64,000 bases of DNA from Eledone cirrhosa (Eukaryota). The DNA is taken from positions 35,278,001-35,342,000 of the forward strand of contig OZ024742.1 of assembly GCA_964016885.1 (NCBI GenBank), written 5' to 3'. Under the pieces are notes generated by a model, which saw only the letters and a program-made list of their open reading frames with translations, made no database searches and was not told the DNA's origin. Both the position numbers and the translations under genes were made by a program. Below, piece after piece: positions 10,036 to 47,772 of the stretch (the stretch's first letter is position 1; each line of letters begins with the position of its first letter).

Positions 10036-10198
10036 TAACGCACCAGAATACTCAATACTTAGGGTAGTAGAGTGGGTAATAGGAAAATGTTCAAGACCCC
10101 GACGGCAGAGCTCAAGCCGTTTCGATGGCTATTTCTGGACTGAAATAGTCGTCGAAACGGCTTGAGCTCTGCCGTCGGGGTCTTGAAAATTTTCCTAT
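10036..10198 (-). mobile_element. Penelope-like terminal fragment (family B) with palindrome 10079-10198 centred on hammerhead helix II
   Basis: Contains GAAA-CGGC-UUGAGCUCU-GCCG-UC-GGGGUC (hammerhead 3' half) on both arms. Flanked by (TA)n. Homologues at 45881-46005 and 47575-47775. Confidence 0.7.
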
Positions 10199-10591
10199 AT
10201 ATATATATATCAATGTATCATTCTGTCCACTTCAAGATGAATTATGAGAACCTACATTGACCCTGGAAGAATTCCAACTGCAAACAGCGTACCACTGCTC
10301 TCACAAAAGGACCGCAGTGACTACTTAACACTTCAATGATTTGCATAATTTTGCATACTAATGAAGATACATGGTGATTAGGGACAACAGGTTAAAGAGT
10401 TAATCTAATACACCATATATATTTACATGAGAGATTAATGGTAAGAACAGGATTTGGATATTGTTGTTGTTAATGTTATCCAATGCTTTTGAGGAGGGTG
10501 TGAAGCTGCTACTGCCACTGCTAACATCACCAACAACAACATTGCTATTTCTACTGCCACCACTACCATTGCTATTAGTATTACATTACTA

Positions 10592-10796
10592 TGGTTTCTG
10601 ATTTAGGCACAAGGCCAGCAATTTTCGGGGAGGGGAAAGTCGATTAAATCTACTCCAGTGCATTACTGGTGCTTTTTTTTATCGACCCCTTAAGGATGAA
10701 AAGCTAAGTTGACCTTGGCGGGATTTGAACTCACAACATAAAGGACTTGCAAAGCATGCTGTCCAACGCTCTACCAATACTGCCAATCCACCTCCC
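10592..10796 (-). mobile_element. SINE family A (diverged)
   Basis: Reverse complement of the family A head and core. Confidence 0.75.
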
Positions 10797-11348
10797 ACAA
10801 CATTACTATTAGTACCACCATTACTACCTCCACCAGCACTACCACATTCACTACTATTCTGCTTCTCTTTATTATTTCAAGACCCATCTGTTTGTACTAA
10901 ACCGCCAACATACTTATCTACAAAAGTTGGATCTAACATAATTGATGTTGTCAATTAAAAAATTTAAATTATTTAAAAATGAGACGAAGGATGTAATGAT
11001 TTAGCAGAATATATCTAAACCTGGCTTTGTTATTGCAGATGTTTATAGTGTCTTTTCTGGAAGATAGATCTTTGTGAAAATTTACACTATGAGAGTAAAT
11101 ACTTCAATTTTTTTTTGTCATGCTGTCATAGGTCTCTTTTGTACTTTTTAATAATGTTTTACTTATTTGGTTTATGTGATAGTGGACATTAAGTTTATGA
11201 AGTGGCTTGTCATCATTTTATGTCTACTTTCTGTGCTGACATGGCTATTGGGTCCAGTGAAACAGGGAAGAAAACACTGCAATTTGAAATACTAGAATTG
11301 TTTTCAACACACTGATGTGTCTATCAGTATATTATTATAAACGTGCAA

Positions 11349-11540
11349 AGGGTGGTGGATTGTATTGGTAGAGGGTCAAACGCCATGCTTTTTAGCATGG
11401 AGTTATGACCCTTTACGGTCTGAGTTCAAATCCTGCTGAGGTTAACTTTGCCTTTTATCCTTACGGGGTCGATAAAATAAAGCACCAGTAATGCACTGGG
11501 ATAATTGCTGGCCTTGTGCCAAACGTAGAAACAATTATTA
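11349..11540 (+). mobile_element. SINE family A
   Basis: Full head and core with (ATT) tail. Confidence 0.85.
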
Positions 11541-12314
11541 TAAATGACAAATACAGACACACTTACAAAAATACACCACTCAGACATACATTCACACAAA
11601 CACATACATTTACACTAACACACACTCATTATCACCCTTTCCTTTCTCAGTCATCTCTAGTGTGTGACAGAAGGACAGAAGTCGCTCAAATTTATATATA
11701 GATTTAAAATTAATTAAACATGTTAAGTAATTTGTGTTAGGAAGAGCATCCAGCTGTAGCAATCAATATTTGGCATGGTCTGCAGCTGGATGCATATCCT
11801 AATACCAACCACCTTACAGGTTGTACTTGGTGCATTTTATCAAGGAACCAGCACTAGAGAAGTTGTCACACGTGTATATATGTCATCATCATTTTACAGC
11901 CAATTACCACATTGGCATAAATTTGACAGGTTTTCACGGTACGAAGCTAGATGAGCCAGAGCAACCTCATTTTACTCAACACATGCTTGTGTGTGTGTTT
12001 ATGTATGTATATAATGTTATACACATATATGTACGTGTTGTTTACAGGATGTTTATGAAAAACATTTGACAGCTTTCCACTGTGAATTTTTTTAGATTGT
12101 GACCACCATACATCCTTAGTTTCAGCAAAAACCCGGGGAAGCAACTAATAGCGTTGTTTCTCATTTGTTGGTGGTTGTCAAGTAAGCATATCAACCTACT
12201 TTCAGATGAGATGACAATAAGCTAGAATGTTATAGATTTCTTGCCTATGTATATGAGCTGATGAAACTCATTTGCATATGGAGCAATAGCTAGCCAGGCT
12301 TAAATTTAGAAACA

Positions 12315-12369
<55 letters not shown>

Positions 12370-12400
12370 ATAAATTTGCTGGTATTCAATATATTGAATA

Positions 12401-12523
12401 CTGGAAAGTCTTACACGTGTTTCAGTGCATTATGTAATCGGCCTATGAGACCTACATTAGTACCTAATCCATTATTTCCCATTGCTCAATAGTACTTAAT
12501 GTGTTTCTTCAGAGAAAACCCAG
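12401..12523 (-). ncRNA. Hammerhead-like ribozyme with extended helix II
   Basis: Minus strand: CUGG-GUUU-UCU-CUGAAGA-[about 80 nt, CAUUA...UAAUG]-GAAA-CACGUG-UA^-AGA-CUUU-CCAG. The base of helix II is imperfect. Confidence 0.6.
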
Positions 12524-12563
12524 GGAAAAAATGTGTTTGTGTGTGTATGTACATATGTGTGTG

Positions 12564-12599
<36 letters not shown>

Positions 12600-12959
12600 C
12601 ACACATACACCTCACCCAAACAGTAAAATCTAAATCTATGGCATCAACAGATCATGGTTGTAGTGGAGCCCCTCTCTTCCCCACCGGGAAAGATTTCAAA
12701 AATGGCTACAGTTCGAAGGGGAAGGGACATGTGCACCTTTGATTTTGGGGGTCACTATAGCTCAGTTGTGTTGGTGGTTTTTAGAGATAATGTTGCGTTA
12801 GGAAGGGAGGGAGGCTGCAGCTCTGCAAAGCCACCTCTTTCACCCACTCCTACCACTACATTTACACTGCCCTTCCTCCATGGAAAATAACCCCCTACCC
12901 CCAAGCTTCATCCTCTTCCTATACACACCCATTCAACAAGACCTCTCAGTTCACTTCCA

Positions 12960-13345
12960 CAACAAACTTCACCATCATCATCACCACCACCACCACACTC
13001 TTCATCTCAAATTCCCCCCCAGCCTTCACCACCACCACCACACTCTTCATCTCAAATTCCCCCCCAGCCTTCACCACCACCACCACCACACTCTTCATCT
13101 CAAATTCCCCCCCAGCCTTCACCACCACCACCACACTCTTCATCTCAAATTCCCCCCCAGCCTTCACCACCACCACCACCACACTCTTCATCTCAAATTC
13201 CCCTCCAGCCTTCACCACCACCATCACCACACTCTTCATCTCAAATTCCCCTCCAGCCTTCACCACCACCATGCTGCTCATCTCAAATTCCCCTCCAGCC
13301 TTCACCACCACCATGCTGCTCATCTCAAATTCACCACCACCACCA
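12960..13345. repeat. Minisatellite, about 39-42-bp unit (CAC)n-ACTCTTCATCTCAAATTCCCCCCCAGCCTT
   Basis: About 9 visible tandem units. Confidence 0.9.
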
Positions 13346-13719
13346 TCATCACCACCACCACCACCACAACCACCACTGTCATCATCATCATCACTTACTA
13401 CCACACTCATATCATATTCACCTCCAACCTTCACCATCACCACTTACCACCTCCCCCCACTTCGGTCATCTCTACCACCTCCCCCACTCCAGTCATCATC
13501 TCTACCACCTCCCCCCCACTTTGGTCATCATCTCTACCACACACCCCTCCCCCACTCCAGTCATCATCCCTACCACCTCCCCCCACCCCACACAACTTGG
13601 CTGTTTTCCCCCCAGTCTGAAATGGGTTAATAATGATTTATTAATTTGATTTACCTTATCACCCCCCCCCCTCCTCTCATTCTTCACCTCATAAAAAGTA
13701 TCCCTCCTGCCAGAAACCC

Positions 13720-16700
13720 ACCACCACTACTACTACTACTACACTACAACCATTCACTACCACCAGCCTCACTACTGCACACCACCACCACCCTCACTAC
13801 TGCACACCACCACTACTACCACCACCACCACCCTCACTACAGCACACCACCACTACTACCACTACCACCACCCTCACTACGGCACACCACCACTACTACC
13901 ACTACCCTCACTACTGCACACCACCACTACTACCACTACCACCAGCCTCACTACTGCACACCACCACTACTACCACCACCACCACCCTCACTACTGCACA
14001 CCACCACTACTACCACCACCACCACCCTCACTACTGCACACCACCACTACTACCACCACCACCACCCTCACTACAGCACACCACCACTACTACCACTACC
14101 ACCACCCTCACTACGGCACACCACCACTACTACCACTACCACCAGCCTCACTACTGCACACCACCACTACTACCACCACCACCACCCTCACTACGGCACA
14201 CCACAACTACTACCACTACCACCAGCCTCACTACTGCACACCACCACTACTACCACTACCACCAGCCTCACTACGGCACACCACAACTACTACCACTACC
14301 ACCAGCCTCACTACGGCACACCACAACTACTACCACCACCACCACCCTCACTACGGCACACCACAACTACTACCACTACCACCAGCCTCACTACTGCACA
14401 CCACCACCACCCTCACTACTGCACACCACAACTACTACCACTACCACCAGCCTCACTACTGCACACCACCACCACCCTCACTACTGCACACCACCACTAC
14501 TACCACTACCACCAGCCTCACTACGGCACACCACAACTACTACCACTACCACCACCCTCACTACTGCACACCACCACTACTACCACTACCACCACCCTCA
14601 CTACTGCACACCACCACTACTACCACTACCACCACCCTCACTACTGCACACCACCACTACTACCACTACCACCACCCTCACTACAGCACACCACCACTAC
14701 TACCACTACCACCACCCTCACTACGGCACACCACCACTACTACCACTACCACCACCCTCACTACTGCACACCACCACTACTACCACTACCACCAGCCTCA
14801 CTACTGCACACCACCACTACTACCACCACCACCACCCTCACTACGGCACACCACAACTACTACCACTACCACCAGCCTCACTACTGCACACCACCACCAC
14901 CCTCACTACTGCACACCACCACTACTACCACCACCACCACCCTCACTACGGCACACCACAACTACTACCACTACCACCACCCTCACTACTGCACACCACA
15001 ACTACTACCACTACCACCACCCTCACTACTGCACACCACCACTACTACCACTACCACCACCCTCACTACTGCACACCACCACTACTACCACCACTACTAC
15101 CACCACCACCACCCTCACTACGGCACACCACCACTACTACCACTACCACCACCCTCACTACTGCACACCACCACTACTACCACCACCACCACCCTCACTA
15201 CAGCACACCACCACTACTACCACTACCACCAGCCTCACTACTGCACACCACCACTACTACCACCACCACAACTACTACCACTACCACCAGCCTCACTACT
15301 GCACACCACCACTACTACCACCACCACCACCCTCACTACAGCACACCACCACTACTACCACTACCACCACCCTCACTACTGCACACCACCACTACTACCA
15401 CCACCACCACCCTCACTACGGCACACCACCACTACTACCACTACCACCACCCTCACTACTGCACACCACCACTACTACCACTACCACCACCCTCACTACT
15501 GCACACCACCACTACTACCACTACCACCACCCTCACTACGGCACACCACCACTACTAACACTACCACCACCCTCACTACTGCACACCACCACTACTACCA
15601 CTACCACCACCCTCACTACTGCACACCACCACTACTACCACTACCACCACCCTCACTACTGCACACCACCACTACTACCACTACCACCACCCTCACTACT
15701 GCACACCACCACTACTACCACTACCACCACCCTCACTACTGCACACCACCACTACTACCACTACCACCACCCTCACTACTGCACACCACCACTACTACCA
15801 CTACCACCACCCTCACTACTGCACACCACCACTACTACCACTACCACCACCCTCACTACTGCACACCACCACTACTACCACTACCACCACCCTCACTACG
15901 GCACACCACCACTACTACCACTACCACCACCCTCACTACTGCACACCACCACCACTACCACCCTCACTACTGCACACCACCACCACTACCACCCTCACTA
16001 CTGCACACCACCACCACCACCACCCTCACTACTGCACACCACCACCACTACCACCCTCACTACTGCACACCACCACCACTACCACCCTCACTACTGCACA
16101 CCACCACCACTACCACCCTCACTACTGCACACCACCACCACTACCACCCTCACTACTGCACACCACCACCACTACCACCCTCACTACTGCACACCACCAC
16201 CACTACCACCCTCACTACTGCACACCACCACCACTACCACCCTCACTACTGCACACCACCACCACTACCACCCTCACTACTGCACACCACCACCACTACC
16301 ACCCTCACTACTGCACACCACCACCACCACCACCCTCACTACTGCACACCACCACCACTACCACCCTCACTACTGCACACCACCACCACTACCACCCTCA
16401 CTACTGCACACCACCACCACTACCACCCTCACTACTGCACACCACCACCACTACCACCCTCACTACTGCACACCACCACCACTACCACCCTCACTACTGC
16501 ACACCACCACCACCACCACCCTCACTACTGCACACCACCACCACTACCACCCTCACTACTGCACACCACCACCACTACCACCCTCACTACTGCACACCAC
16601 CACCACCACCACCCTCACTACTGCACACCACCACCACTACCACCCTCACTACTGCACACCACCACCACTACCACCCTCACTACTGCACACCACCACCACT

Positions 16701-16810
16701 ACCACCCTCACTACTGCACACCACCACCACTACCACCACCACCACCTTCACTACTGCACACCACTACCACCACCACCACCCTCACTACTGCACACCACCA
16801 CCACTACCAC
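13720..16810. repeat. 3.1-kb minisatellite, 40-bp unit changing to a 31-bp unit (core CCTCACTACTGCACACCACCAC)
   Basis: Directly visible tandem array. The 1071-aa ORF is a by-product of it. Confidence 0.95.
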
Positions 16811-16912
16811 AACCATCTGAAGGAATCCTTCCTGGATAATTTGGATAATGATGATAACTAATGATTCTCATCATCTCCTGACACACACGTGTGTGTATAT
16901 ATATGTGTGTGT

Positions 16913-16943
<31 letters not shown>

Positions 16944-17513
16944 TATATGTATATATATATGTATATATATATATATGTATATATGTATGTGTGTATCTGT
17001 ATACATGTTTGTTTATAAATATTTGTATATATATGTGTGTGTGTTTGTATGTGTATGTATAAAAGAGAGGTAATAAGTTTTATTTTGGGATGTATATATC
17101 TGGTCCACATCGGGTCGGATGGGTTGATACGTGATTCTTGATTTCATTTGATTATAGTGGTCATGTTGTTGTTGGTGTTGTTGTTGTAGTAGTAGTAGTA
17201 GTAGTAGTAGTAGAGTGTCTGGGGGAGTAACAACAAGATTTAATGTTGGAGTAGAAATTGGGTATAATATAAGGATGATAAAGGTGACGTCGCTATATGT
17301 GTATGCTGATAAATCTTAATTACTAATCAATATCTGCCAATGTGTGCATGTGTGGATGTTTAGAAATCTCAGTCTGTGTGTGTATTTGTTTATATATATA
17401 AATATAAATTTGTATTGGTGCTACGATATAGTAATATACTTATAAATCTACATATTGTATATTTAACAATATATGGTATGTTTATGGAAAAAACATTTTG
17501 AAAGCCTTTCACT

Positions 17514-17877
17514 GTGAATTTTAAGGTTGTGATGAATGTCACATTTCTAGTTTCAGCAGAAGCAGGGGGAAGTAATCAACGATGCCACTGTTTCTCACTC
17601 ATAAGTGGTTGTCAAGACTACATATATCCCCACCTTTCCTGTAGAATTCTGCTTATGTTTATGAGCTGATGAACGCTCCATATGCAAATGAGTTTCTTCA
17701 GCTCATAAACGTAAGCAGAATTCCATAAGAATCCAGCTTATTTTAGCTTCAGCAAAAGCTGGGAGATACATAGTCTTGACAACCACTTATGAGTGAGAAA
17801 CAGTGGCATCGTTGATTACTTTCCTCTGCTTTTGCTGAAGCTAGGAATGTGACATTCGTCACAACCTTAAAATTCAC
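17514..17877. repeat. Imperfect long inverted repeat of a Penelope-like terminal family (single-orientation homologue at about 12060-12315)
   Basis: Outer arms gtgaattttaaggttgtga... and ...tcacaaccttaaaattcac. Centre is ATGAG-CTGATGA...TCTTCAG-CTCAT. Confidence 0.75.
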
Positions 17878-20502
17878 TCCCTGGTTTGAAGGTATCTTTC
17901 TCTCTTCCCATCACTTGTCCCAGACTAAAGAGCAATAAAAAAAAAAATAATAAAACAGTTGTCTGTCAATACAAATCATTAGGCAGAATCATCCTGGCCC
18001 TTTTGATACCCAACTATCTAAAACTGCCCCTGCTGATTCTACGAAACTTTGTGTAAGAACCTTTATTAAATCATGATCCAAACACCAGCTTAGCTGTTAA
18101 TGCCATGAACTACATGAAACCACAATTGCAATACATTCCTGAAAAGTGCAAAACAGTACCATAACTGAATCACATTAAATATTAAAGTCTTCACTCTACC
18201 TCTGCAATTTTTTACAATGATCTGTCCACTGTTAATTTTCATATTTGAACTAACAAACCTGTTTTGAGATATTTTCTGCCTAATCATTACAGGATGTTAA
18301 GAGTTGATAATAAGAGAAAATTACTTAAATCATTAAATTTCTCAATTCTTGATTAGTTTCAAAATTAAGTGGAAATCATAGGCAGTGCCTTTCATAAGAA
18401 ATATGCTAACGAGTGGGTTAATTAAGACTCTGGGAAGGGGGAAAAGCAAATATTAAACAAAACTGTTGATAAAAATTAGAATATTTTTACATAAAACTAA
18501 ATTTTAATTCATCAAATAAGTCTCCAGAAAGATTGACATTAAGATTGACATTAAGAGAGATCTTATTTCAGGATTTAACACATTAATATATATGAATATT
18601 TGCATGTATGTACATGTATATGTATGTATTTTTACATGTGAATATATAAATACAAAATGTTAATTACTCTAATGAATTTTTGATGTTAATTAGAAGGCAG
18701 ATAACATACCACACAGCCCCCCTCATATGAACCAGAATTAATGCCAATAAATCATATATCTTAAATAATATTAATTAATTGGTGTTAAAAGCAAATAATC
18801 AGAAAATTCTATAAAGATAGTTTTAAAAGGTTTGAAACAAAGTTGTATTGATATAGATATTAAAATATTCTTGGTAGTAATTTATATATCAAAATCTCTC
18901 AACAAAACAATTTTCAAATAATTTTGAAAATAATCAAGATTTAAGAGGGATTCATATAATAGTTATAATATAGTCAAATAAGTCTCTTAAATTACCCTTG
19001 GAGATGAAAAACAGATTGTAATAGGTGCCTGTATTATTCACCCCACCCGCAGCTGTGATAACCACTACACAAAAGCAACCTTTGTTTCTCTCTCCAAGAG
19101 TAACTTTCTTGACTTATTCAACTATTTTATAGTCATTGCCGCGGTTAACTTTGCCTTTCATCCTTACGGAGTCGATAAAATAAAGTACCAGTAATGTACT
19201 GGGTAATTGCTGGTCTTGTGCCAAAAGTAGAAACAATTATATATATAACGTAGATTTACATTGAATATTCAAGTGTCTTTTGTGGTTATGAAAACGGAAA
19301 AGGAAGGGGAAGGCAAGGGTTCTAGTGTCACAGAAGGATAGGGAGGGTGATAGACTCTGGACAAGACCAAAAAAGCATTCCTGCAGACAATGGCCAGCAA
19401 CACCTGCTGCAACAGCCACCCCACTTAGCAGGGCACCTTCCTATGCCCCAGCTTTTCATAATTAAAGCAAATAAATTGCAAAATTTCAGACTTGCCCAAT
19501 TTCTTCTTAAACTTTATTTCTAGTCAATTGTTAGTGGTGAAAAATTGGTCATGTCACTTTGGTGTAATGGTTATCACAGCTACCCAGCATATGGTAGATG
19601 CCTGGTTCAGTTCTGGCAGGCATCTCTGTCCACCCTTTTATCTTCTTAAGGGTAATTTACCCAGTTGTTTTTGCTAATGTACATACAGTCATCAACTGAA
19701 ATCACAGCCATTTTGTAATGTGATTGATGCTTGAAATCCTGTGTTTCATCTCCTTCAGAAAATTGCTTACCTGGTTGACATGGAACTTTAAATAGTATGT
19801 GTGTATGTATATATATATATTACCTTTGGCGTTATGCAGTAATACAGAAGATCCGAGTTCTGCCGAAGCTGAAGCATATAGGCAATATGCCCCCACGGCC
19901 CTCCGACTGTAAAGTGGTCTTGTAGGTGACATGACAAAAAGCACCCAGTACTCACTGTAAATGAGGTTGGTGTTAGGAAGGGCATCCCGCTGTAGAAACC
20001 GAGCCAAAATCAGTCCTGCATGAGTAAGATATGGTCACCTGACCTGGCATTGCCCACAACAGGACAACCCGTCTAACATGCTAGCGTGGAGACTGATGTA
20101 AAACGGTGATGATGATGATAAATATATATATATATTTATATATAGAATAGGGTTGAGAAGACTCTTCAGTTGTGTCAAGAGCACAACAAACTCTCTAGTG
20201 TTGGTGATATGATAAAATGCACCCAGTACACTCTGTAAAGAGATTGTTAGAAAGGGCTGTAAGCTGTGGAAAACTTACCAAACATGGGTAGAAAGGACTT
20301 TCCAGTTGTGTCAAAGACATGACAACCTCCCTTATGCTGATACCACAATAACATGCATAGCACACTCTGTAGATTGTAGGAACTTACCTAAGCCAGACGT
20401 GACACTGGCCCTCTGTGAGATCAGTGGCTCTAATTGAGTACTGACTTGGTCCAAGATGACCCATCCAATCCTTGCTAGCTGGAAAAATAGACATTAAATG
20501 AT

Positions 20503-20693: not shown

Positions 20694-20879
20694 TAAATGA
20701 TAATGAAACATATAATGAAATTACTGTAGAGGTATGTATTTGGATAATATTCCTGACAAAGCAGAGATGGAGAATCCATTTAATGTAATTAAGTGTGTAA
20801 GATGATGTGAATATATGAGCAAATGTGTGTGTTTGTTTATATATATATATGTATGTTTGTATGTATGTATATCTATATA

Positions 20880-21313: not shown

Positions 21314-23190
21314 ATAGCGCAACTAATCAGAGAGAGAATTGACCTAGATGAAATGCAGTTCGGGTTTGTGTCAGGCAAAAGTACCACAGGCGCTCTTTTC
21401 ATAGTACGACAACTACAGGAGAAGTACCTAGCTAAAGGTAAACCCCTCTACTTAGCTTTTGTCGACTTGGAGAAGGCCTTCGACAGAGTCCCCCGCTCCA
21501 TTATCTGGTGGGCTCTTAGAAAACTAGGCGTTCACGAATGGCTTGTGAGGGCTATACAAGCCATGTATAAAGAAACAGTCAGCAAGGTTAGAATTAACAA
21601 CGAATATAGTGAAGAGTTTAGCGTAAAAGTTGGCGTCCATCAGGGCTCTGTTCTCAGCCCCCTACTATTTATTATTGCCCTTCAGGCTATAACAGAGGAG
21701 TTCAAGACAGGCTGCCCATGGGAACTCCTATACGCAGACGACCTGACACTCATAGCGGAATCAATGGCCGAGCTAGAGAAGAAATTCCAAACATGGAAGC
21801 ACGGCCTAGAGTCAAAAGGACTTAAAATTAACCTGGCTAAGACCAAAGTTCTAGTTTGTAGGAAAGAAAACAAGGCGGCGGTCCCTTCTGGGAAATGGTC
21901 GTGCTCGGTGTGTAGGAAAGGCGTAGGTAGAAACTCCATTTTATGTCCTAAATGCAAAGTATGGGTGCATAAAAGATGTTGTGGGATCACAGGTAAGCTA
22001 ACTAAGAACATAGATTTTACATGTGGCCGGTGTTCTGGTGCAATAAGTAGCAGCAAGTGCCCACAAAATACTAGCTCTTTCAATTGCGCAGAGGGTTCTA
22101 TAGAAATAGTGGACAGCTTCCGCTACCTGGGCGATAAAATCAGCAGTGGGGGAGGGTGCTCTGAAAGTACTGTAGCTAGAGTCAGAACTGGTTGGAAAAA
22201 GTTCAGAGAGCTTATACCACTATTAGCTGCTAAAGGGTTCTCCCTAAAAATGAAAGGCAGGTTGTACGATGCCTGCATACGAACAGCAATGTTGCATGGC
22301 AGTGAGACCTGGGCATTGTGTGCAGAGGATATACGCAGATTAGAGAGGAACGAAGCTTGCATGCTCCGCTGGATGTGTAACAGTAATATACGTGAACGGC
22401 AAAGCAGAAACGAACTAAGGAAAAAATTAGAGATAAGAAGGATCAGATGTTGTTTACTCGAGAGAAGGCTACGTTGGTATGGACACGTGATGCGCATGAA
22501 AGTCGATAGCTGTATAACAAAGTGCAGGGCAATAAAGATAGACGGTAGTCACGGAATAGGCAGACCTAGAAAAACCTGGGACGAGCTGATAAACTCCGAC
22601 ATCACACACTTACACCTCTCCAAGACAATGTCACTGGACCGAGACCTTTGGCGGTACTCAGTAATAGAGAAGACCCGCCTTACCTAAATACAAAGTAAAA
22701 CCTACTACAGTCAGTAGGCATCTCTAACAAAATACACCCCCCGTCCCACCACCCCCACCCCATCCACACCGCCCCTTTCAATGTAAAGTTATGTTGGTGC
22801 CACAACATCCAGGCCGAAACAAATGAGAACGTGTAGGTGTCACGACAAAAAAACACACAGTCCACGCTGTAATGTGGCCGTGTAGGCAATACGGTAAAAA
22901 CCTCCCAGCCCCACACTGTAAATGTGGTTGGTGTTAGGAAGGGCATCCAGCCGTAGAAAACCCGCCAGACAGTCCACGCTGTAATGTGGCCGTGTAGGCA
23001 ACACGGTAAAAACCTCCCAGCCTCACACTGTAAATGTGGTTGGTGTTAGGAAGGGCATCCAGCTGTAGAAAACCCGCCAGACAGTCCTATGCGAGCAAGA
23101 CAATCACTCTTGCCTCAAGTGGGACTACCCCCGTCCAAACCCATGCAAGCGTGGAACACGGACGTTAAACGTTGATGATGATGATGATGA
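21311..23190 (+). mobile_element. 5'-truncated RTE-clade LINE (RT with internal PHD finger); ORF open to 22687
   Basis: RT motifs QFGF, LAFVDLEKAFDRV, GVHQGSVLSP, LLYADD, FRYLG. RTE C-terminus [12 protein letters not shown]...GRPRKTW...DRDLWR. (GAT)n tail. 5' end abuts (TA)n. Confidence 0.93.
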
Positions 23191-30957: not shown

Positions 30958-31062
30958 GTATATATATATATATATATATCTATATATATGTATATATATG
31001 TATATATATATATATATATATCTATATATATGTATATATGTGTATGTATATATATACATATA
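29880..31062. repeat. Very long compound (TA)n/(TATG)n tracts
   Basis: Directly visible, with a short unique insert at about 30070-30210. Confidence 0.95.
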
Positions 31063-32127
31063 GATTGTACATGTGGCCAGTGCTCTGGTGCAATAAGTAG
31101 CAGCAAGTGCCCACAAAATACTAGCTCTTTCAATTGCGCAGAGGGTTCTATAGAAATAGTGGACAGCTTCCGTTACCTGGGTGACAAAATCAGCAGTGGG
31201 GGAGGGTGCTCTGAAAGTACAGTAGCTAGAGTCAGAACTGGATGGAAAAAGTTCAGAGAGCTTATACCATTATTAGCCGTTAAAGGGTTCTCTCTAAAAA
31301 TGAAAGGCAGGTTGTATGATGCCTGCATACGAACAGCAATGTTGCATGGCAGTGAGACCTGGGCATTGTGTGCAGAGGATATACGCAGACTAGAGAGGAA
31401 CGAAGCTTGCATGCTCCGCTGGATGTGTAATAGTAACATACGTGAACGGCAAAGCATAAGCGAACTAAGGAAAAAATTAGAAATAAGAGGGATCAGATGT
31501 TGTTTACTCAAGAGAAGGCTACGTTGGTATGGTCACGTGATGCGCATGAAAGACGACAGCTGTATAACAAAGTGCAGGGCAATAAAGATAGACGGTAGCT
31601 ACGGAGTAGGCAGACCCAGAAAAACCTGGGACGAGCTGATAAATTCCGACCTCACACACTTACACCTCTCCAAGACAATGTCACTGGACCGAGACCTTTG
31701 GCGGTATTCAGTAATAGAGAAGACCCGCCTTACCTAAATACAAAGTAAAACCTACTACAGTCAGTAGGCATCTCTAACAAAATACACCCCCGTCCCACCA
31801 CCACCACCCCCATCCACACCACCCCCTCCTATGTAAAGTTATGTTGGTGCCACAACATCCAGGCCGAAACAAATGAGATCGTGTAGGTATCACGACAAAA
31901 AAACACACAGTCCACGCTGTAATGTGGCCGTGTAGGCAACACGGTAAAAACCTCCCAGCCCCACACTGTAAATGTGGTTGGTGTTAGGAAGGGCATCCAG
32001 CTGTAGAAAACCCGCCAGACAGTCCTATGCGAGCAAGACAATCACTCTTGCCTCAAGTGGGAAAACCCCCGTCCAAACCCATGCAAGCGTGGAACACGGA
32101 CGTTAAACGATGATGATGATGATGATG
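31063..32127 (+). mobile_element. Second, more truncated copy of the PHD-RTE LINE, embedded in (TA)n
   Basis: Near-identical to 22010-23190 apart from the 3'UTR duplication. (GAT)n tail. Long (TA)n on both sides. Confidence 0.93.
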
Positions 32128-38071: not shown

Positions 38072-38206
38072 GTGAGTGTCTGAATGTGTACGAGTATGTA
38101 TATACATGAAAGTGTGTTTATTTGTATATGTCTACAAATATGTATAGGTATGTATGTATGAAAGCATGTTGTTATGTCATATAATGTATTTTCCATTGTC
38201 CTATAG

Positions 38207-38454
38207 GTCTATAGCCCGTCTTGCCCAGGTCTCCAAAGAGAAGCTCCAAAAGGAAGCAGTCAGTTGTACTATTGATTTAAGCCATGAGAAGGAGTGGAAA
38301 TTGGCCAAGTGTATTATGAGGTTTGCTGATGTTATCCAGAAGGTTCTTTCTGACCTCCTCCTTCATTCTGTCTGTGACTATGTCTATGAGTTGGCCACAG
38401 TCTTTACAGAGTTCTATGACCAATGTTACTGTATTGAGAAAGACCGCACCACAG
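38207..38454 (+). CDS. RARS1: Arginyl-tRNA synthetase coding exon (DALR anticodon-binding domain)
   Basis: ctatag acceptor, acag|gtacag donor, 248 nt. Translates [17 protein letters not shown]...[14 protein letters not shown]...[17 protein letters not shown]. Confidence 0.96.
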
Positions 38455-38514
38455 GTACAGAGTTTGTTATTTGAGATTTTGTGAGATTTTTTGTAGGGGG
38501 AACAGTGGAAGAAT

Positions 38515-38931
38515 TAATGTTTGTAGTGGTTGTGGTGGGAGCAGTTATGTTTGTAGTGGTTGTAGTGGGAGTGGTGGGAGCAGTGATGTTTGTAGTGGGA
38601 GTGGTGGGAACAGTGATGTTTGTAGTGGGTGGGAACAGTGATGTTTGTAGTGGTTGTGGTGGGAACAGTGATGTTTGTAGTGGTTGTGGTGGGAGCAGTG
38701 ATGTTTGTAGTGGTTGTGGTGGGAGCAGTGATGTTTGTAGTGGTTGTGGTGGGAGCAGTGATGTTTGTAGTGGTTGTGGTGGGAGCAGTGATGTTTGTAG
38801 TGGTTGTGGTGGGAGCAGTGATGTTTGTAGTGGTTGTGGTGGGAGCAGTGATGTTTGTAGTGGTTGTGGTGGGAGCAGTGATGTTTGTAGTGGTTGTGGT
38901 GGGAGCAGTGATGTTTGTAGTGGTTGTGGTG
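38515..38931. repeat. 30-bp minisatellite (GATGTTTGTAGTGGTTGTGGTGGGAGCAGT) in the last RARS1 intron
   Basis: About 13 tandem units. Confidence 0.95.
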
Positions 38932-39003
38932 TTTTTATTTATGTACATTATCTGATTTGAACCTGACTTACTCTGGTTTCATGTTTTTTGGGTGTTTTTT
39001 CAG

Positions 39004-39113
39004 GGGAAATAATTAAAGTAAACATGAGTCGTTTGCTGCTCTGTGAAGCCACTGCCAATGTAATTCACACCGTATTCAACATCCTGGGTATCCAACCTGT
39101 AAGCAAGATGTAA
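39004..39113 (+). CDS. RARS1: Arginyl-tRNA synthetase terminal coding exon
   Basis: tttcag acceptor. (G)EIIKVNMSRLLLCEATANVIHTVFNILGIQPVSKM-TAA ends in the characteristic ArgRS C-terminal Met. Confidence 0.96.
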
Positions 39114-39204
39114 AGCTAATGCTGAAGAGGGGACCATTCCTATCCACCACAATACACATATACAATAATATAAGATGGTGTCTATCATGTCCTCACGATT
39201 TCTA

Positions 39205-39230
39205 AATAAATTTCTTCATGAGAAAATAAA
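39205..39230 (+). promoter_or_regulatory. Candidate polyadenylation signals of RARS1
   Basis: Two AATAAA hexamers (39205-39210, 39225-39230) about 90-115 nt after the stop codon, followed by T-rich sequence. Confidence 0.5.
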
Positions 39231-40249
39231 AAAATATATATATCTATATATTTGTACCAGTCTTTGACTTTTTGTAATTTTAATTTCAAGAACCTTTTGT
39301 TATTAAAGTACCAGCTAATTACTCGGGTCAATGTAATCAACTTATCCCTTTTCTACCATATTGCTGGCCTTGTGCCAAAACTAGAAGCCATTGTTGTTGT
39401 TATTATCAAAATTGTTAGTGTTGACAAAATGCCATGCAGTAATAATTACACCAATGACAAATGTACATGCCATGTCTAAGTCTAAAGTCTGTCTTAAGCT
39501 ATTTAAGTCTCGTTAGGTCAGTACTTATCCTGATTTCATGACGTGAAGTGACTGAGAGTACAATACTCCCCACTGGACAGGATGACAGTCCATCGCAGGT
39601 TTAAACCCCCAGCTATTGCTGGTACTTATTTTCAGCTGAGTATACTGAAGCAACATGAAATGAAGTATTTTTCTCAAGAATACAACAAGCAACCCAGCTC
39701 GGGAATCGAACCCACAACATTATGATCGTAAGTCCATCACCCTTACCACTAGGCTACATGCCTTCTAGACGTAGACTTAGACTTTTAGAATGACAAATGT
39801 ATGTCCCTTCACTATAGTAGAAAACATGTCCAAGGTGCCACACAGAGGGATCAAACTTGAACTTGAAACCACGTGGTTGTGAATTGAACTCCTTAACCAC
39901 AGAACCTTTCTTCCTACCTAATTGTTTGTAATATTGTACTTTAACCCTTTTGATACTAAACTGCCTAAAACAACCTGAAACCACATGGTTGTGAAGCAAG
40001 TTTGTTGACCACACAGCTGTGCCTGCACCTCAGCCATGCTTGCATGGAGGTTGTGTGTGTGTATTGAACCACCATCAGTTCTGATGTCAAGTGTTCCAGT
40101 CATTTGAACAACAATACAATCTGTTTCTGAAATAATCGTGAAAGTAGCTGAATATTCCACTGAAATGGGTATATAGATATAAAATAGTAAATGTAAGTAT
40201 GTGTGTGTGTATGTGTATATATATATGATGATGATGATATATATATATA

Positions 40250-40489
40250 TATAAACAATGAGTTATATGGTTTGTTGATTATTCAACAAAGTTAATTTCA
40301 TAACAGATTAGAAGCACTCTACAATATTTATCTGGAGTATCATTAATATTAATAAATGGAAAATATCTTTATAAAACCATATTTATTTTATTATACGTAT
40401 TTCAAGGGTACTTAAATATTAGTACCCTTGAAATACGTATAATAAAATAAATATGGTTTTATAAAGATATTTTCCATTTATTAATATTA
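40250..40489 (-). mobile_element. Penelope-like terminal fragment (family A) with palindrome 40344-40489 centred on hammerhead helix II
   Basis: AAGGGTACT-taaatatt-AGTACCCTT-GAAA-TACGTA-TA-ATAAAATA. The flank is homologous to 6864-6940 and 53004-53145. Confidence 0.75.
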
Positions 40490-41118
40490 TTAATATATAT
40501 ATATAAATATGGCTGACTCATGTGTGCTAAATGGCCCAAATCTCTGGAAAAGAACCAAAGTGATAATCCCAATTTCAAAAAATGAAACAAGAAAGATTAC
40601 TCTGGAGGAATCTCCTTGTTAAGCCACCCCGGTAAAGTTTATGCGAGGTGTCTGGCAAAGAGATGTAGGAATACTGTTGACTCCAAGCTAGCTGACAATG
40701 TGAGTTTCACCCCAGACATAGCCCAGCCAACCAAATATGTGGCAGGTCTTTGAGAAATTGTGGAAGTATTATCAAGAAATGTATACTTCTTTCATGGACT
40801 TCAAAAAGGCATACAACCATTATGTTAAGGGTACACAGTGTACCCTTAACATAATTCTCAGGGAGAGCGTGGAAGATGGACGTTAAACAATGATGATGAT
40901 GATTCTGTATGATAAGGCTGGTCCTTTGAATTACAAATACAGTTTGACTGGCTTCCAAATAATTTCCATCTACCCAATTTTACTCACAAGGCTTGGGTTG
41001 ATTTGGGACTATGGTACATGACTTGCGCAAGATGCCACACAGTGGGATGGAATCTGGGACCTTATAATTGTAAAGTAAACTTCTTAACCAGCCAACAATG
41101 TCAATGCATATTGAATAA

Positions 41119-41151
<33 letters not shown>

Positions 41152-43049
41152 CCCAAACATGCATGATGTATAACTACTTTTTTCAATTTATTCCTAGAGT
41201 CAGCATAAAAAAATATTCTGTTAAATTATAAAAAGAATTACAAGAGTTTTTTTAAATATGTTTTCCCTTTCTTCATCTCTCTCTCTCTTCTCCCTTTTGT
41301 CCCACTCCCACTTACCCTCCTTCCTCTTCTCCTTGAAAATATTTCATTTCCTATCCATCAAGATTACGTCCTTGTTATATTAATTTAGGCTGTAGTGGGT
41401 GTGGAAGGCTATTAATTTCCAGTCAATTTTCTGTATAACTTTAACTTGTTAATAATTAGATGAGTTAAAAGTGTAATTATAGTGGTGGTGGTGGCGATTA
41501 CAGTATGAAGGTGTGTGGCTTAGTGGTTAGGGTGTTGTGCTTGTAATTATAAGGTCATGAGTTTGATACCTGGATCAGTTGGTGTGTTGCATCCTTAACC
41601 ATGACACTTCATTTCACATTGCTTCAGTTTACTCAGCTTGGAAAAAATGAATTGTGATAACATTAGTGCCAAGCTATATCAGCCTTTCCCTTTCACTTGG
41701 GACATCCTATATGGTGTGTATATATGTTCTGACATCACTGATGCCAGGCTGTATTGGTGTTTGCCTTTATAACAACAGTGATGGGGGAAATAGGAGACTG
41801 GCATGCATGAATGACTAGTAGCCTTCCATAGAATAACTGCCCAGGTTTGCACATTAGAGAGGAACTTTCAGTTGTAAATCTATGGTCAGTTATGACAAAA
41901 AGAGGTCTATTGTGGGGAGTAGTACAGGTAGCTGCAGGGCTAGGGGTGATGTCCATGTGGTTGCTGTGACAATGGGAACAAACCAGGCAAGGCTGTGTTG
42001 TAAGACAGTTGGGCTCATGGTCATAAGGTCATGTGTTCGACTTCCAAACAAGGTGATATATTGTATTCTTTATTCCATGTTTCTCCTGTCCACTTAACTA
42101 GAAAGAGTGAGTAGTAGCAGCAACAGCTGGGGGTTAACCTTACAACTCGGTGGTATCTAATTCAGGTAGGAGGTAGGGTAACTTTCTACTTTTATTTCTT
42201 TCCACATATCTTTTCTGGCTCCATGTGTTCTTAGTTCAAATCCTACATCCTATCATCGACTTAAAATAGAAAAGAAAAACAGGCCTTTGGGGAACCTGAC
42301 TATCGGTGGTAAGCAAGCAAGCCAATATCATGGAACAACATGTTGATTGGACTAACATCTTGGTTGAATCAACCAATGAAAATTCATGACTACTAGATCT
42401 CTGCAATGAAACAGGATAACTACTTGAAAAAAACAAAAATCAAATAAATAAATAACTATATAAACTCCCTGACCAATGAAGTGTGTGTCCATCTGAAGGT
42501 CAAACAACACCACTCAGATCTAATTGCTAACCTTATTAACTAGGTATGATAATTGTAATTATAAAATCTACACTAGAGACCAAACCAAGAAGGTGGTGTT
42601 TGGGGTGAGAATAGAATTGTTTCAAGTTAGTTGAATGTTTTTTACTTTTGTTTTCACTTTTTTAAATCAACTTTTCATTCTTTTTACAGTGTTGTAGTTC
42701 AAATTGGTGGTGTTGCATTGTGGGATGGAATAATTGGAGCAAGAGATTAGTTTAAGTGGGGGTAGGAGTGAGAAAATATAAATAGAGAATATTGTATGAA
42801 TTATAAGTGTGTGCAATTCTAATTTTTGAATACTATTAATAATAATCCTATCCAACATTGGCACAAAACCAGCTATTACATCGAACCCAGTACACAACTG
42901 GTACTTTATTTTATCAACCCTGGAAGGATGAAAGGCAAAGTTTACCTCAGCAGAATTTGAACTCAGACCATAGAAAGTTGTAACTAAATACCACATCACA
43001 TTTTGTCCAATGCTCTACCAATCTACTGCCTTTATACTGTTAATAATAA

Positions 43050-43225
43050 TTGTTTCTACTTTTTGCACAAGGCCAGCAAATACCCAGTACATTACTGGTA
43101 CTTTATTTTATCGACCCCGTAAGGATGAAAAACAAAGTTAACCTCGACGGGATTTGAACTCAGACCGTAAAGGAACATAACTATGCTAGAAAGCATGGCG
43201 TCCAACCCTCTACCGATACCACCCT
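43050..43225 (-). mobile_element. SINE family A (older copy adjacent at about 42850-43030)
   Basis: Reverse complement of the family A core. Confidence 0.8.
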
Positions 43226-44140
43226 CTTAATAATTATATTAATGGTTTCTGCTTCAGGCACTAAACCAGCAATTATAGGTCGGTGGCTATGTCGATCACG
43301 TCTAGCTCAGAAGTTGATTTGAACTCATTATGAATTATTATGGTTTCTGATTAAAACACAAGGAGAGCAACTTTGAGGGGAATTTAAAGTCGATTATATC
43401 GACTTCAGTTCTTGACTGGTACTTCACTTTATTTTGAACTAATATATATATATATATATATATATGACCTGTTGTTAACCATATATAAATACACACATAT
43501 ATATATTTAACCACGTCATCCCCTAACACTTTGAGTACAACAGAACAGAGAACGTCCATTTATAATATTTAAATAAGGTTGTCGACTGCTGACAAAGCCA
43601 AGGGACAATCAACATAAGAAAACAAATGAAGGACACAAATAGGTTATGGTGAGTGGTGGAGGGAATGGTGGGGTTGGAATGTTTGTTGCAATGTGGTGTT
43701 TATGTTGGTAGTGATAGTGTTGTTGTTGTTGTCGTGAGTGGTCGAGGGAATACGGTTGGGATGTTTGTGCAATATAGAGCTTATGTTGGTAGTGAGGGTG
43801 GTGGTGGTGGTGGTAAATGTGGTGAAGAAATTGGGCTGGGGTGGGGACCCCTTACAACATGGGAACCATGACAGAAACACACATACACAATAAAATAAAA
43901 AAACTGAAAATGTCATTCTGAGATATAGTTATCAGGCCTGAAGTTGTTTGCAAAGATCACGATTTGTATTGTAAAACAAAACGGTTTGAAGACTGTAAAT
44001 CGATGAATATGACACGTAGACTCTTTATATTTGTGGACATGGCAACTCCATAGAGAGACATGATCTGTTATCCATTATTCAGAAACATTTACGTGGGTTT
44101 ATCATTATTACAATATATATGTATATTTATCATTATTACA

Positions 44141-44522
44141 ATCGGTAGAGAGTCTGACGCCATGCTTTAACGTATAGAGTTGCAGCCCTTGCCATTCTGA
44201 GTTCAAATCCCGCCAAGGTTAACTTTGCCTTTCATCCTTACGGGGTCGATAAAATAAAGTACCAGTAATGCACTGGGTAATTGCTGGCCTTGTGCCAAAA
44301 CGTAGAAACAATTATTATAATATGTAAGGGCGGTGGATTGGCAGTATCGGTAGAGGGTCCGACGCTATGCTTTGCAGCAAAGAGTTACGGCCCTTTCTGG
44401 TCTGAGTTCAAATCCCGCCGAGGTTAACTTTGCCTTTCATCCTTACGGGGTCGATAAAATAAAGTACCAGTAATACGCTAGGATAATTTCTGGCCTTGTG
44501 CCAAAAGTAGAAACAATTATTA
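44141..44522 (+). mobile_element. Two tandem SINE family A copies
   Basis: Head-to-tail copies with A/B boxes. Confidence 0.85.
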
Positions 44523-44583
44523 CAATATGTATATAAATGTATGTGTGGTATATATAAATGATTCTTTTATGTTAAAACATTTA

Positions 44584-44631
<48 letters not shown>

Positions 44632-44689
44632 GTATGCGTGTGTGTGAGAGGGTGAGAGAAGGTGGTGCCATCTTTCGTCCGTAGCATTT

Positions 44690-45440
44690 AAGAGCTGAAG
44701 CAGGCTTGGTGTGGCACCAGATGGCAGGAAAACCCTTGGATCAATCATAGAGTCAAAGATGTCATCCGAGCAAAGAAGGAGGCCTTCAAAGCTTGGCTTG
44801 AAAATAAGGTCATCCTTCTTACATTTGCGGTACAAGACGCAGCAGAGACAGTAAAAGCATGTAAAGTCAAGCCATAGGAGTACTTTGGGGTTAAACTGGA
44901 ATCCAATTTTAGATCAGCAAATAAAGTGTTCTGGCACGCATCCTTAGACTTCGTAATAAGAAGTCCTCTTCCAGACCTGCTAATATCCGAGATGTTAAAA
45001 GCATTAAATAGAGAAGGTATTCTCTGGCTGACTCATATGTGCCATGTGGACTGGATCTCTGGAGAGGCACCTAAGCAATGGCAATCAGAAGTGATAATCC
45101 CAATTTTCAAAAAGAGAGATTGCTCCAACTATAAAGGGATCTGTTTGTTAAGCCACCCTAGTAAAGTCTATGTTAAGTGTCTGGCAAAGAGATGTAGAGA
45201 GATTGTCTCGTCCAAGCTAGCTGGTGAGCTGTCTGGTTTTTCCATAATGAACATTCGATAACGAGAAGAAGGGAAGTAGGTCCCTATCTTCAATTCGGTA
45301 TTCTTGCCAAACTTGATCTATGAACACGAATATTGGGTAATGACTGAAAGAATATGATCGCGAATACAAGCGGTCTTTGGAGTAAAGTTACTTGAGAGAG
45401 CGGGTAGTTCAGAGATGAGAGAGTCACTCCGGTTCTTTTG
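44690..45440 (+). mobile_element. Degenerate RTE (Expander/Rex3-like) RT fragment; related piece at about 40510-40830
   Basis: EMLKALNREGILWLT...PKQWQSEVIIPIFKKRDCSNYKGICLLSHPSKVY. Confidence 0.7.
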
Positions 45441-45795
45441 CTCTATATACAAATGAGCTTCGTCGGCCGATGTTCACAAGCTTTTGCCTTATACTCGTAT
45501 TCGCATCCAAGAAGGTGTTAGCCCCTCTGAAACAGTGTCGTTAGAGTGCTTTCACTTGCTAGACCAGTGGTGGTTCATCACTGCTTCTAAAATTTCATAG
45601 CGAAGGCTATAATAGTGTTTATTTACATAGACATTTTGTATATGATTTAATATACAACTCCAGTAACACACACGTATATATATATCAGATAGTGTGTGAA
45701 TCTTTTCATATATATATATATATACACACACACATATATATATATGTGTGTATATATTTATATATGTATATATATATGAAAAGATTCACACACTA

Positions 45796-45839
<44 letters not shown>

Positions 45840-46289
45840 GTGTGTGTTACTGGAGTTGTATATTAAATCATATACAAAATCGAAACGGCTTGAGCTCTGT
45901 CGTCGGGGTCATACTTTTTCCTATTTCCCACTCTACTACCCTAAGTATTGAGTACTCTGGTGCGTTATGGTCCATCTGTTTCTTTACTACAATTCCTTTG
46001 TTATGTATATATATATATATGTGTGTGTAAATGGAATGTCTAATAACGTAGTTTCCTTATAAAACAAATTTCCTATATTTAGAACTTTGGAGTTTTATGA
46101 ACTTTTATGCCCGACGGCTAAACTAAAATTGTTTTGATAATAAATGAAGTCTATCCGCGTGCGAGGTTACACGTTAACTTAAAGGTGGGGGAATACGTTC
46201 GGGGAGTAGAGGGGAGGTTTGGAATGAAACAAAAGTTAAAAACAAAATAATCAAAATCTAAGATATTACAAGAACGAAATAGTACTACA

Positions 46290-46507
46290 ATTCTCCTCCG
46301 TTCTTCATCGGACATGTTGAGACCAAAACCCTCGTATTTTGTTTGGTGATGTCGCTTTAAATTGTACTCTTTGAACACAGCGATTGTCTCTTGACACAGC
46401 AAACATACCGCCTTATTCCCGGCACAGGTAAAAGAATACTTGTGTAACCAATCTTCTTGGAATACACGACATTCTTGGTCAATTTTGTGCTTTTTAGCAG
46501 AAGTCAT
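46290..46507 (-). mobile_element. hAT (Charlie/GTF2IRD2-like) transposase N-terminal fragment
   Basis: KKHKIDQECRVFQEDW..Y.F....KAVCLLCQETIAVFKEYNLKRHH is a BED-type zinc finger. Confidence 0.75.
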
Positions 46508-47164
46508 TATTATGTTTAGAAGAAATTATGTGGTGGAAACGAAATGCGGATGTCAACAGGGCGCGCAAGCTCTCCTATCCCCATGTCATCTCAAGAGATT
46601 CTGGTATTGAAATCCAGGACTTGGCAACGGCAATGAACGACAGACCCACGTGAGATCAATTGTTGAGTTCATTTCGGCTGAGGCCGCCGGATGATGATGA
46701 TGATGATGATGATGATGAAAACTCTGTGATTGTGTGCTTGTCTGAAATTTAATACTGTCAAAACGGCGCATAATGAGAAGATACTTTGAAAGGAGTTGCC
46801 CCTGATATAAGAATACAAATTGAATAAAACAAGTTTCGAATAAATCGGAGCACAGGATTCCAAGATACGGGGTTTTTCCGGGTACCTTCATAAATAGAGA
46901 GAGAGAGAGAGAGAAAGATAGAGAGAAAGGGATAGTGGTTGTGAGAGAGTATATTGAAAATGAGACACAGAGGGAGAGAGAAAGAGAAGGAAAATGGAAG
47001 AGAGAGAGGGTTGGTGGTGGTGTTGAATGAAATTATAACTGGTGACTTCAAAGAATCGAATACAACATTAGTGTTTCCTGCTAAATAGAAAGGGTTTCTA
47101 AGTGTATGTGTGTGTCTGTGACCAGTGTAGAAAGGCCATAGCCACCCATATATATATATATATA

Positions 47165-47540
47165 CACGAGGGCAATCCCAAAAGTAAGGTCTCCTTCTGA
47201 TATTGCAACTTTTCTGTTAAAATCCTGTGGATGGTGCTTCGGGAAACCCCAGGAACCAAAATGCAGAGAGCATCCAGAGTGATCCGCCGATCTTTACGCA
47301 TGTTTTCCTCGGAAGGGAAAATCCTTTTGGGATTACTCTCGTAATAATAACTGCGCAAAATTCGTACTTGGCGGTAGCGTTCAACGGGAGCTCCATTCTC
47401 GACGGCTTCCAAGCCAAGATTGAGCATCCCAGCGAAGCGCGTGCGTGCTTGTTTGGGAGTGAAGGAAGCACCAATCACAACAGTGTTGCCAACAGCCGTA
47501 CGAACATCGCTTTGGAGACCTTATTTTGGGGATTACCCTC

Positions 47541-47543
<3 letters not shown>
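47165..47543 (-). mobile_element. Internally deleted mariner element (MITE-like)
   Basis: About 30-bp TIRs cacgagggcaatcccaaaagtaaggtctcc / ggagaccttattttggggattaccctcgta, flanked by TA. Internal mariner HTH remnant RKDRRITLDAL...VSRSTIHRILTEKLQYQK. Confidence 0.85.
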
Positions 47544-47574
<31 letters not shown>

Positions 47575-47579
<5 letters not shown>

Positions 47580-47772
47580 AACCAGTAAGACCCCGACAGC
47601 TGAGCTCAAGCCGTTTCGACGGCTAATTCTGGACGAGTCCAGAATTAGCCGTCGAAACGGCTTGAGCTCAGCTGTCGGGGTCTTACTGGTTCCTATTACC
47701 CACTCTACTACCTCAAGTATTGAGTACTTTGGTGCGTTATGGTCCACCTGGTTCCTTACCACATTTCCTTCG

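Follow-up and report, generated by a model that had tools for sequence, protein, structure and literature searches.

Insertions of endonuclease-bearing (EN+) Penelope-like elements have been described as head-to-head pieces with a tail on one side only, partial tandems, palindromic junctions, and promoter motifs in their pseudo-long terminal repeats (pseudo-LTRs) (PMC8557442, PMC3846280). The same accounts already cover the inverted arm with its tail, the palindromes at junctions, and the hammerhead ribozymes of pseudo-LTRs; promoters and transcription starts in pseudo-LTRs have likewise been published. The origin of the inverted repeats and the one-sided tail is stated as an open question (PMC8557442), and Arkhipova et al. 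2013 interpreted junctions of this type as the outcome of self-priming with an antisense template (PMC3846280). Dual hammerhead motifs lying 100-700 bp apart on opposite strands were reported by Cervera and de la Pena 2014 (PMC4209133). In vitro, the Poseidon enzyme of Anolis cuts and extends both target strands on an uncleaved RNA template, and two reverse transcriptase (RT) start sites bound the tail; the available text of that study leaves the inverted arms unexplained and the 5' ends unmapped (PMC11167929, Frangieh et al. 2024). In LINE-1 twin priming, one RNA is primed a second time, which yields an inverted piece whose junction carries small indels, and an untemplated, cap-derived G is found at complete 5' ends (review PMC4859970). 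Here we compare these systems with short inverted insertions, chiefly those of a hammerhead-bearing family that we call B, in a 64,000-nucleotide stretch of Eledone cirrhosa DNA (contig OZ024742.1, positions 35,278,001 to 35,342,000; hereafter the window).

The original prediction for this stretch placed the symmetry axis of such palindromes in hammerhead helix II, where the complementary DNA (cDNA) was thought to snap back on the ribozyme's own hairpin and prime itself. We trace the family B insertions to an intact Penelope-like element. From their sequences we consider it probable that they arise by twin priming on one RNA, with run-off at a predicted transcription start followed by end joining.

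Palindromic stubs and their source element

Three insertions in the window are genuine palindromes, as had been predicted: 10079-10198 (arms 57, loop 6 nucleotides [nt]), 40344-40489 (arms 69, loop 8), and 47575-47696 (arms 60, loop 2). The fold of the last has a z score of -21.8, which none of 200 shuffles reached. Each consists of two inverted 3' halves of a type I hammerhead, without the 5' core box. Family B is best followed at 47575-47696, which we number from +1, the first base common to the window arm and the source element. This base marks what we call the 5' wall; it falls within loop II, 3' of a small hairpin at the apex. A tail-less arm runs on the minus strand from +61 back to +2 (47575..47634). 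Its partner, on the plus strand, covers +1 to +61 (47636..47696) and holds the end of loop II, the 3' strand of helix II, the 3' core box (47654), helix III, the cleavage site (after 47676), and the 3' strand of helix I. A single-copy 80-nt tail (+62 to +141; 47697..47776, plus strand) follows, and then (TA)n. The copy at 10079-10198 pairs a tail-bearing arm of an older subfamily, running on the minus strand from the wall to +105 with a short tail (10035..10141), with a tail-less plus-strand arm, +7 to +61, that also ends in (TA)n (10142..10198). A lone arm with its tail, +17 to +141, stands at 45880..46004 (plus strand) without an inverted partner; it is adjoined at 45633-45879 by a further palindromic element with a (TA)n centre.

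From position 47636, 141 nt of the window (arm plus tail) are identical to the junction between the upstream pseudo-LTR and the open reading frame (ORF) of a locus that we call L321 (G000:C1:11224001-11234000), where the tail runs into the ORF-bearing body. L321 carries an uninterrupted 786-codon frame (4878-7235) between two family B pseudo-LTRs. An inverted arm with the tail lies at 2350, and direct repeats lie at 4848 (with the tail) and 7966 (without it), giving the Penelope-like layout of partial-tandem pseudo-LTRs, an inverted 5' copy, and an optional tail. Read by eye, the single ORF contains RT motifs and then GIY-YIG endonuclease motifs. The Atlas neighbours of its protein, at 0.96-0.99, have the HTH_animal, GIY-YIG, and RVT_1 families; searches of Pfam and PDB with the protein returned no match. 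The family B stubs are pseudo-LTR pieces of an intact Penelope-like element with RT and GIY-YIG endonuclease, and the Penelope-like origin that had been proposed for them is thereby confirmed.

By motif comparison, L321 appears to fit the Hydra clade of C-terminal EN+ elements. As in that clade, it has a single ORF, a unit near 3 kb, a pseudo-LTR hammerhead, a (TA)n target, and (read by eye) DKT, the CxCX5C linker, and CxxC/CxH beside E and N, with no CCHH; it differs in having RWR at the place of RWK, a core that is mostly U3-A8, and a long helix II (PMC8557442). Relative to the EN+ insertions described so far, both arms here are stubs of 60-140 nt in thousands of copies, their family-specific wall has been mapped, and the tail is 80 nt rather than 30-40 (PMC8557442, PMC3846280). 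The supplements of PMC8557442 may list family B. A non-LTR retrozyme was considered and rejected: retrozymes as defined in 10.64898/2026.07.22.740005 are head-to-tail tandem units with a complete hammerhead each, whereas family B stubs face each other head to head, without the 5' core.

Complete family B copies probably encode a type I hammerhead, having the core boxes, three helices, G10.1-C11.1, and the cleavage triplet. Helix I is 5 bp and helix III 4 bp long, and loop II has 30 nt. The L321 hammerhead folds as a three-way junction, with a z score of only -0.6. Across 10 copies 93.7% of cells are paired, compared to 25-56% for slid partners, and the helices of these copies contain no two-sided change. 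An upstream core had been predicted for family B, and it is indeed present in 35 complete copies; its sequence is mostly U3-A8 (27 of 35) rather than the one expected, with C3-G8 in 5 and other forms in 3. A search with the C3-G8 pattern and a short gap found the core with helix I at none of 30 loci (its hits were chance junctions), a wider gap found it at 5 of 30, and the U3-A8 form came from later searches. The C3-G8 form in 5 of the 35 is a compensatory pair. The U3-A8 core is common to families B and C, and standard descriptors miss it; an Rfam scan of the window (E <= 1) gave no hammerhead among the best 150 of 155 matches. Family B resembles the minimal hammerheads of Penelope-like elements in its type I form, short helix I, G10.1-C11.1, U3-A8 variant, and long helix II with a bulge at the 5' end, and is set apart by its 4-bp helix III and by a 30-nt loop II with an apparent, predicted transcription start (PMC4209133). 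Two further details concern this element. By eye, the tails of families B and F have an 11-nt word in common, a candidate enzyme binding site, and the helix III loop of family B holds a 6-nt palindrome that could pair two RNAs.

Arm ends and the helix II rule

If cDNA snapped back on helix II, it must have crossed the loop and ended in the 5' strand of that helix. We mapped the ends of 53 family B arms (2 of which belong to a diverged relative and were kept in the count) in an unbiased sample of 1,464,000 bases, made up of the window and 14 blocks of 100 kb. Measured in nucleotides before the 3' core box, the ends fall at 0-7 (8 arms), 8-12 (10), 13-17 (15), 18-22 (10), 23-29 (3), 30-44 (2), 45-150 (0), and >150 (5). 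On this scale +1 is at 18 and the helix II 5' strand at 45-56, and 46 of the 53 arms end at 0-29. The original prediction had suggested such a mapping as its own test, and the outcome is divided: breakpoints cluster sharply, as expected, and they do so in loop II, but none of the 53 falls in the helix II 5' strand.

Exact patterns were also searched genome-wide, in 3.0 Gb, where one palindrome may count twice. The helix II fold-back junction of family B had 0 matches; of 30 native copies, 22 fit the left part of that pattern. The pattern for a join by way of the small apical hairpin matched 24 times, and the one with both arms at +1, separated by no more than 14 nt, 8,419 times. Arms reading natively through loop II gave 6,792 matches, so the family B wall is no absolute block. 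Mapped on complete copies, the axis does lie in the region named by the prediction, in loop II in family B, and the native 8-nt loop is kept in the family A copy at 40344. The hairpin at the family B axis is not helix II itself, however: the inversion created it, and it contains neither the native 5' strand nor the native loop.

In family A, helix II joins gave 9 matches at 5 places, against 1,608 arms. These places include the window copy, a palindrome joined within helix II (40344..40489) with loop II at 40413-40420 and the 3' core box at 40430, and two that are identical and lie 30 kb apart. Because the native loop II is kept at 4 of the 5 (40344-40489 and three further A2 places), we take the event to be real but rare. 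The same product would be expected equally well if two cDNAs annealed through helix II, and 27 of 30 fetched family A arms run past helix II.

Family C contradicts the rule in another way. The insertion at 17514..17877 was said to keep CUGA(U/A)GA in both arms and to be centred on helix II. It is an older head-to-head palindrome (77%), but the box that had been seen is antisense. The hammerhead is complete in both arms, at 17776-17820 (plus strand) and about 17570-17615 (minus strand), with U3-A8 cores at 17776-17782 and 17609-17615; the junction, near 17673-17675, is upstream of both, and the axis lies 60-100 nt away. On the strand originally read, the order 5' core box, helix II, 3' core box was found by eye at 0 of 30 family C loci, and on the opposite strand the hammerhead pattern fits 6 of 30 loci and all 3 window arms. 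One of the family's arms is an older, lone one at 12049..12310 (minus strand; core 12175-12181).

Families C, D, F, and G have their axis upstream of the hammerhead core. A further counter-example, overlooked in the prediction, is the family A-related palindrome at 6523..6913, with 193-bp arms and a complete hammerhead in each (core at 6806 on the plus strand), whose axis is 88-94 nt upstream of the core. A loose filter passed 90 inverted structures in 864 kb of the genome, some of them simple-repeat palindromes; in many, each arm holds a hammerhead 5' core box at a distance of 3 to 514 nt from the axis. From the junction counts and the strand finding, the positional rule fails in families A, B, and C. 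Those who would still have helix II snap-back and self-priming set the axis of inverted termini generally can point to the four family A places that keep loop II and switch within the helix, to the 24 joins through the apical hairpin, and to the position of the family B axis. Set against 0 exact family B joins, 5 places beside 1,608 arms in family A, axes upstream of the core in four families and at 6523-6913, and rare family A cases that annealing of two cDNAs explains equally well, such a general mechanism seems to us highly improbable. Joins through helix II pairing exist, but they are rare. The new DNA-level role that had been proposed for the ribozyme is not supported, and the objects themselves are a known kind of insertion.

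Family-specific walls and predicted promoter boxes

The 5' ends of arms pile up at a wall whose place depends on the family. In family B it is in loop II; in family F it is just upstream of the core, a few bases before the 5' core box and outside helix II. In nine long family F copies the 3' core box is preceded at 53-57 nt by a TATA box and, further up, by CCAAT, at near-constant spacing. We mapped 55 family F arms from the unbiased sample and from the flanks of fetched loci: 38 end within -8..+2 of TATA+30, 5 are shorter, none ends at +3..+38, and 12 are long, so that 38 of the 43 short arms stop in the first of these intervals. In complete family B copies a CArG box (3 variants) lies at -62..-65 in 26 of 35, compared to 0.8% in shuffles; CCAAT is present in 21 of 35, in 20 of these at -87..-92; and a TATA-like word occupies -29..-31 in 31 of 35, where it coincides with the helix II 5' strand. 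The +1 base falls within an initiator-like word, and inspection of +28..+32 in family B by eye found no downstream promoter element. The names CArG, CCAAT, TATA, and initiator, and the spacing taken as usual for them, follow common usage for promoters. The arms keep bases before the wall, which led us to reject a 3' splice site there.

The base that precedes +1 is also suggestive. It is G in the window copy (47635, plus strand) and T in L321; G stands there in none of the 35 complete family B copies and in 0 of 100 native matches listed. Among the join matches listed (by eye), 12 of 100 have G and 71 have T. By arm, G precedes +1 in 8 of 30 palindrome arms and in 2 of 23 arms with other partners. 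Genome-wide, G on both arms matched 658 times, about 120 being expected if the arms were independent (the patterns are not strictly nested). By analogy with LINE-1, the extra G is a candidate for a copied cap.

Several observations weigh against taking the wall for a transcription start. The TATA-like word of family B is not independent evidence, since it is the helix II 5' strand, and the box counts rest on related copies rather than on independent lineages. In family A the ends of 33 arms scatter between 8 and >500 nt (7 of them at 90-99) without a sharp wall, in family D the wall is loose and the one long reference lacks a TATA box at -30, and the A3 references are too diverged for arm mapping; support from families A and D is accordingly weaker or absent. 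The G is a minority (12 of 100), the commonest base, T, is indistinguishable from the native T, and in 4 of the 12 G matches the loop is a single base, which is C when read from the opposite strand.

In the predicted fold, an extended helix II ends in an apical loop whose 3' side is also where the family B wall lies, and twin priming might end there for a different reason, an RT stall or a cut in the RNA at that loop. The fold of the ribozyme would then still have a part to play. In favour of this, the apical stem is 90% paired in 10 copies, and many arms among the join matches listed reach -3 to -6. Yet no apical pair has changed on both sides, and 0 of 53 arms end at 45-150 nt even though 6,792 arms pass the loop. 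The wall of family F is equally sharp, outside helix II and at TATA+30, and the extra G is left unexplained; we regard a stall or cut as improbable.

Probable copying of one RNA into two cDNAs

All 40 scored genome matches to 47575-47770 are palindromes with a one-sided tail. Thirty copies (L001-L030), picked for likeness to the window copy, were fetched; they lie within (TA)n, have unrelated flanks, and are 92-100% identical. By eye they have 19 distinct centres, and the centres carry short templated or untemplated additions. Because centres differ between near-identical copies, palindromes likely form anew at each insertion. A single pre-formed founder, named in the original prediction as a result that would speak against it, is thus not what we find. 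One could still imagine units like miniature inverted-repeat transposable elements (MITEs) that descend from a few founders and have had their centres scrambled afterwards by cruciform breakage. Four copies are 100% identical over 196 nt, and one centre recurs in 11 of the 30. A founder would be expected to hand down one centre and fixed ends; we see varied centres even in young copies, an asymmetric tail, subfamily differences on both arms at once, an arm equal to a non-palindromic source (L321), and single arms, non-overlapping pairs, and long arms with the same ends. Descent from such founders is exceedingly improbable. The centre shared by 11 of 30 look-alike copies is that of the window copy, which tells against formation at every insertion, as some re-amplification may have occurred.

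To ask how many RNAs were copied we turned to 52 family B pairs, leaving out L001-L030, which had been chosen for likeness. Exactly one arm has a tail in 47 pairs, neither in 4, and both in 1. At 9 diagnostic columns 27 pairs are identical and 14 differ at one, so that 41 of 52 differ at no more than one column, compared to about 21% of arms from different insertions; both arms therefore usually come from one RNA or source. The other 11 comprise 7 gap artefacts, 3 true subfamily mixes (L059, L065, L297), and 1 pair differing at two columns. In nearly every pair, one arm has its start at +141, where the tail ends, and its partner at +61, the end of the pseudo-LTR. Lone arms without a tail commonly end at +61 too, so this position counts as an independent start site. 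The last 3 nt of these start sites, and of +105 in the 10035 copy, match the (TA)n target. Of 45 family B insertions in the unbiased sample, 26 are head to head: 19 pairs overlap (one with an internal deletion, which the script had classed otherwise) and 7 do not. In those 7 the tail arm starts at +55 to +97, at or past the second start site, and copying of the first cDNA is ruled out for them unless a later deletion intervened. Head-to-head joins of family D with family B, both near their 5' walls, were seen at L031, L040, L051, L060, L075, and L082. As evidence for two RNAs they were set aside, because the loci were picked by a family D motif and nested microsatellite insertion explains them too.

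These pairs bear on a third possibility, in which the run-off end of the cDNA snaps back by microhomology (not on helix II), is lengthened with the cDNA itself as template, and then anneals again to the target, at +61. Arkhipova et al. 2013 proposed self-priming of a broadly similar kind (PMC3846280); stretches of nearby arm sequence recur as short inverted copies in many centres, and in 41 of 52 pairs the arms are of one subfamily, as copying of the first cDNA would predict equally well. The 7 non-overlapping pairs could partly be later deletions. These points count against two primings. Set against fold-back are the 7 of 26 pairs with no copied region in common, a tail-less arm that often extends further 5' than its supposed template, the joining of different subfamilies in 3 of 52 pairs (L059, L065, L297), and the many tail-less lone arms at +61. 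We consider fold-back of a run-off end unlikely.

Twin priming on one RNA, which we prefer, would proceed as follows. An enzyme dimer would cut both strands of the (TA)n target and prime from both ends of the cut, and one RNA would be copied twice, from +61 and from +141. Transcription would begin at the wall in the upstream pseudo-LTR, the wall being the putative capped 5' end, and both cDNAs would run off this RNA start, placing the 5' ends of the arms at the wall. With no more than 61 and 141 nt between the start sites and the predicted cap, the products would resemble strong-stop cDNAs. Where the tail-primed enzyme displaced the first cDNA, overlapping arms (a palindrome) would result; where it stalled at the second start site, the arms would not overlap. 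End joining with trimming and short additions would make the centre, and long arms would derive from the downstream pseudo-LTR. To our knowledge, L1 inversions do not duplicate the copied region. Relative to LINE-1 twin priming, 19 of 26 family B pairs overlap almost fully, so that strand displacement or a second RNA is needed. The start sites agree with the in vitro behaviour of Poseidon: in both systems they bound the tail, and the arms of family B cross the cleavage site, indicating an uncleaved RNA template as in that study. The systems differ in that the start sites of family B end in 3 target-matching nt, whereas no target homology is reported in the available text on Poseidon (PMC11167929). 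Our searches of the open-access literature, supplements excluded, turned up no account of Penelope-like elements that deals with a fixed axis, twin priming, or run-off.

If family B transcription starts in loop II, its promoter overlaps the hammerhead and the transcript begins as a half ribozyme, which would be unable to cut itself at the 5' end. The match of the family B axis to helix II would then be a coincidence of promoter position.

Other repeats lie in the same window. A complete family A hammerhead in a long arm at 52949..53000 (plus strand) matches other long copies for 244 nt upstream of the 3' core box. The surrounding family A head-to-head insertion (52427-52598 and 52744-53150) has as its left arm a 96% inverted copy; the start of this arm, unusually, is some 35 nt upstream of the ribozyme core. 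A palindrome with 36-bp arms (8156-8261) lies inside a common dispersed repeat, and a tandem array of 51-bp period, about 98% identical, occupies 61313-62235. A direct repeat of 966 bp (22010-22975 and 31060-32025) has 96% identity over a distance of 9 kb, and a dispersed repeat of about 190 bp occurs in >10 copies, some in tandem (44141-44521, 54362-54565, 59888-60366, and others).

Thousands of stub junctions amount to a natural experiment on the inverted repeats and one-sided tail of Penelope-like elements. Their counts exclude helix II snap-back as a rule and weigh against simple self-priming. What is gained beyond the published descriptions is a sharper account of formation and a likely promoter inside the hammerhead. 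Joined into one account, which we offer tentatively as close to an even call and slightly on the doubtful side, twin priming by a cDNA-displacing dimeric enzyme would explain the inverted-plus-tail signature. The stubs would be strong-stop products that map the transcription start of each family within a few bases, and this Hydra-type family would have a core promoter within the hammerhead (TATA-like in helix II, initiator in loop II), its transcripts starting as half ribozymes. If this is true, palindrome centres map the promoters of dead families from DNA alone, and ribozyme and core promoter use the same bases.

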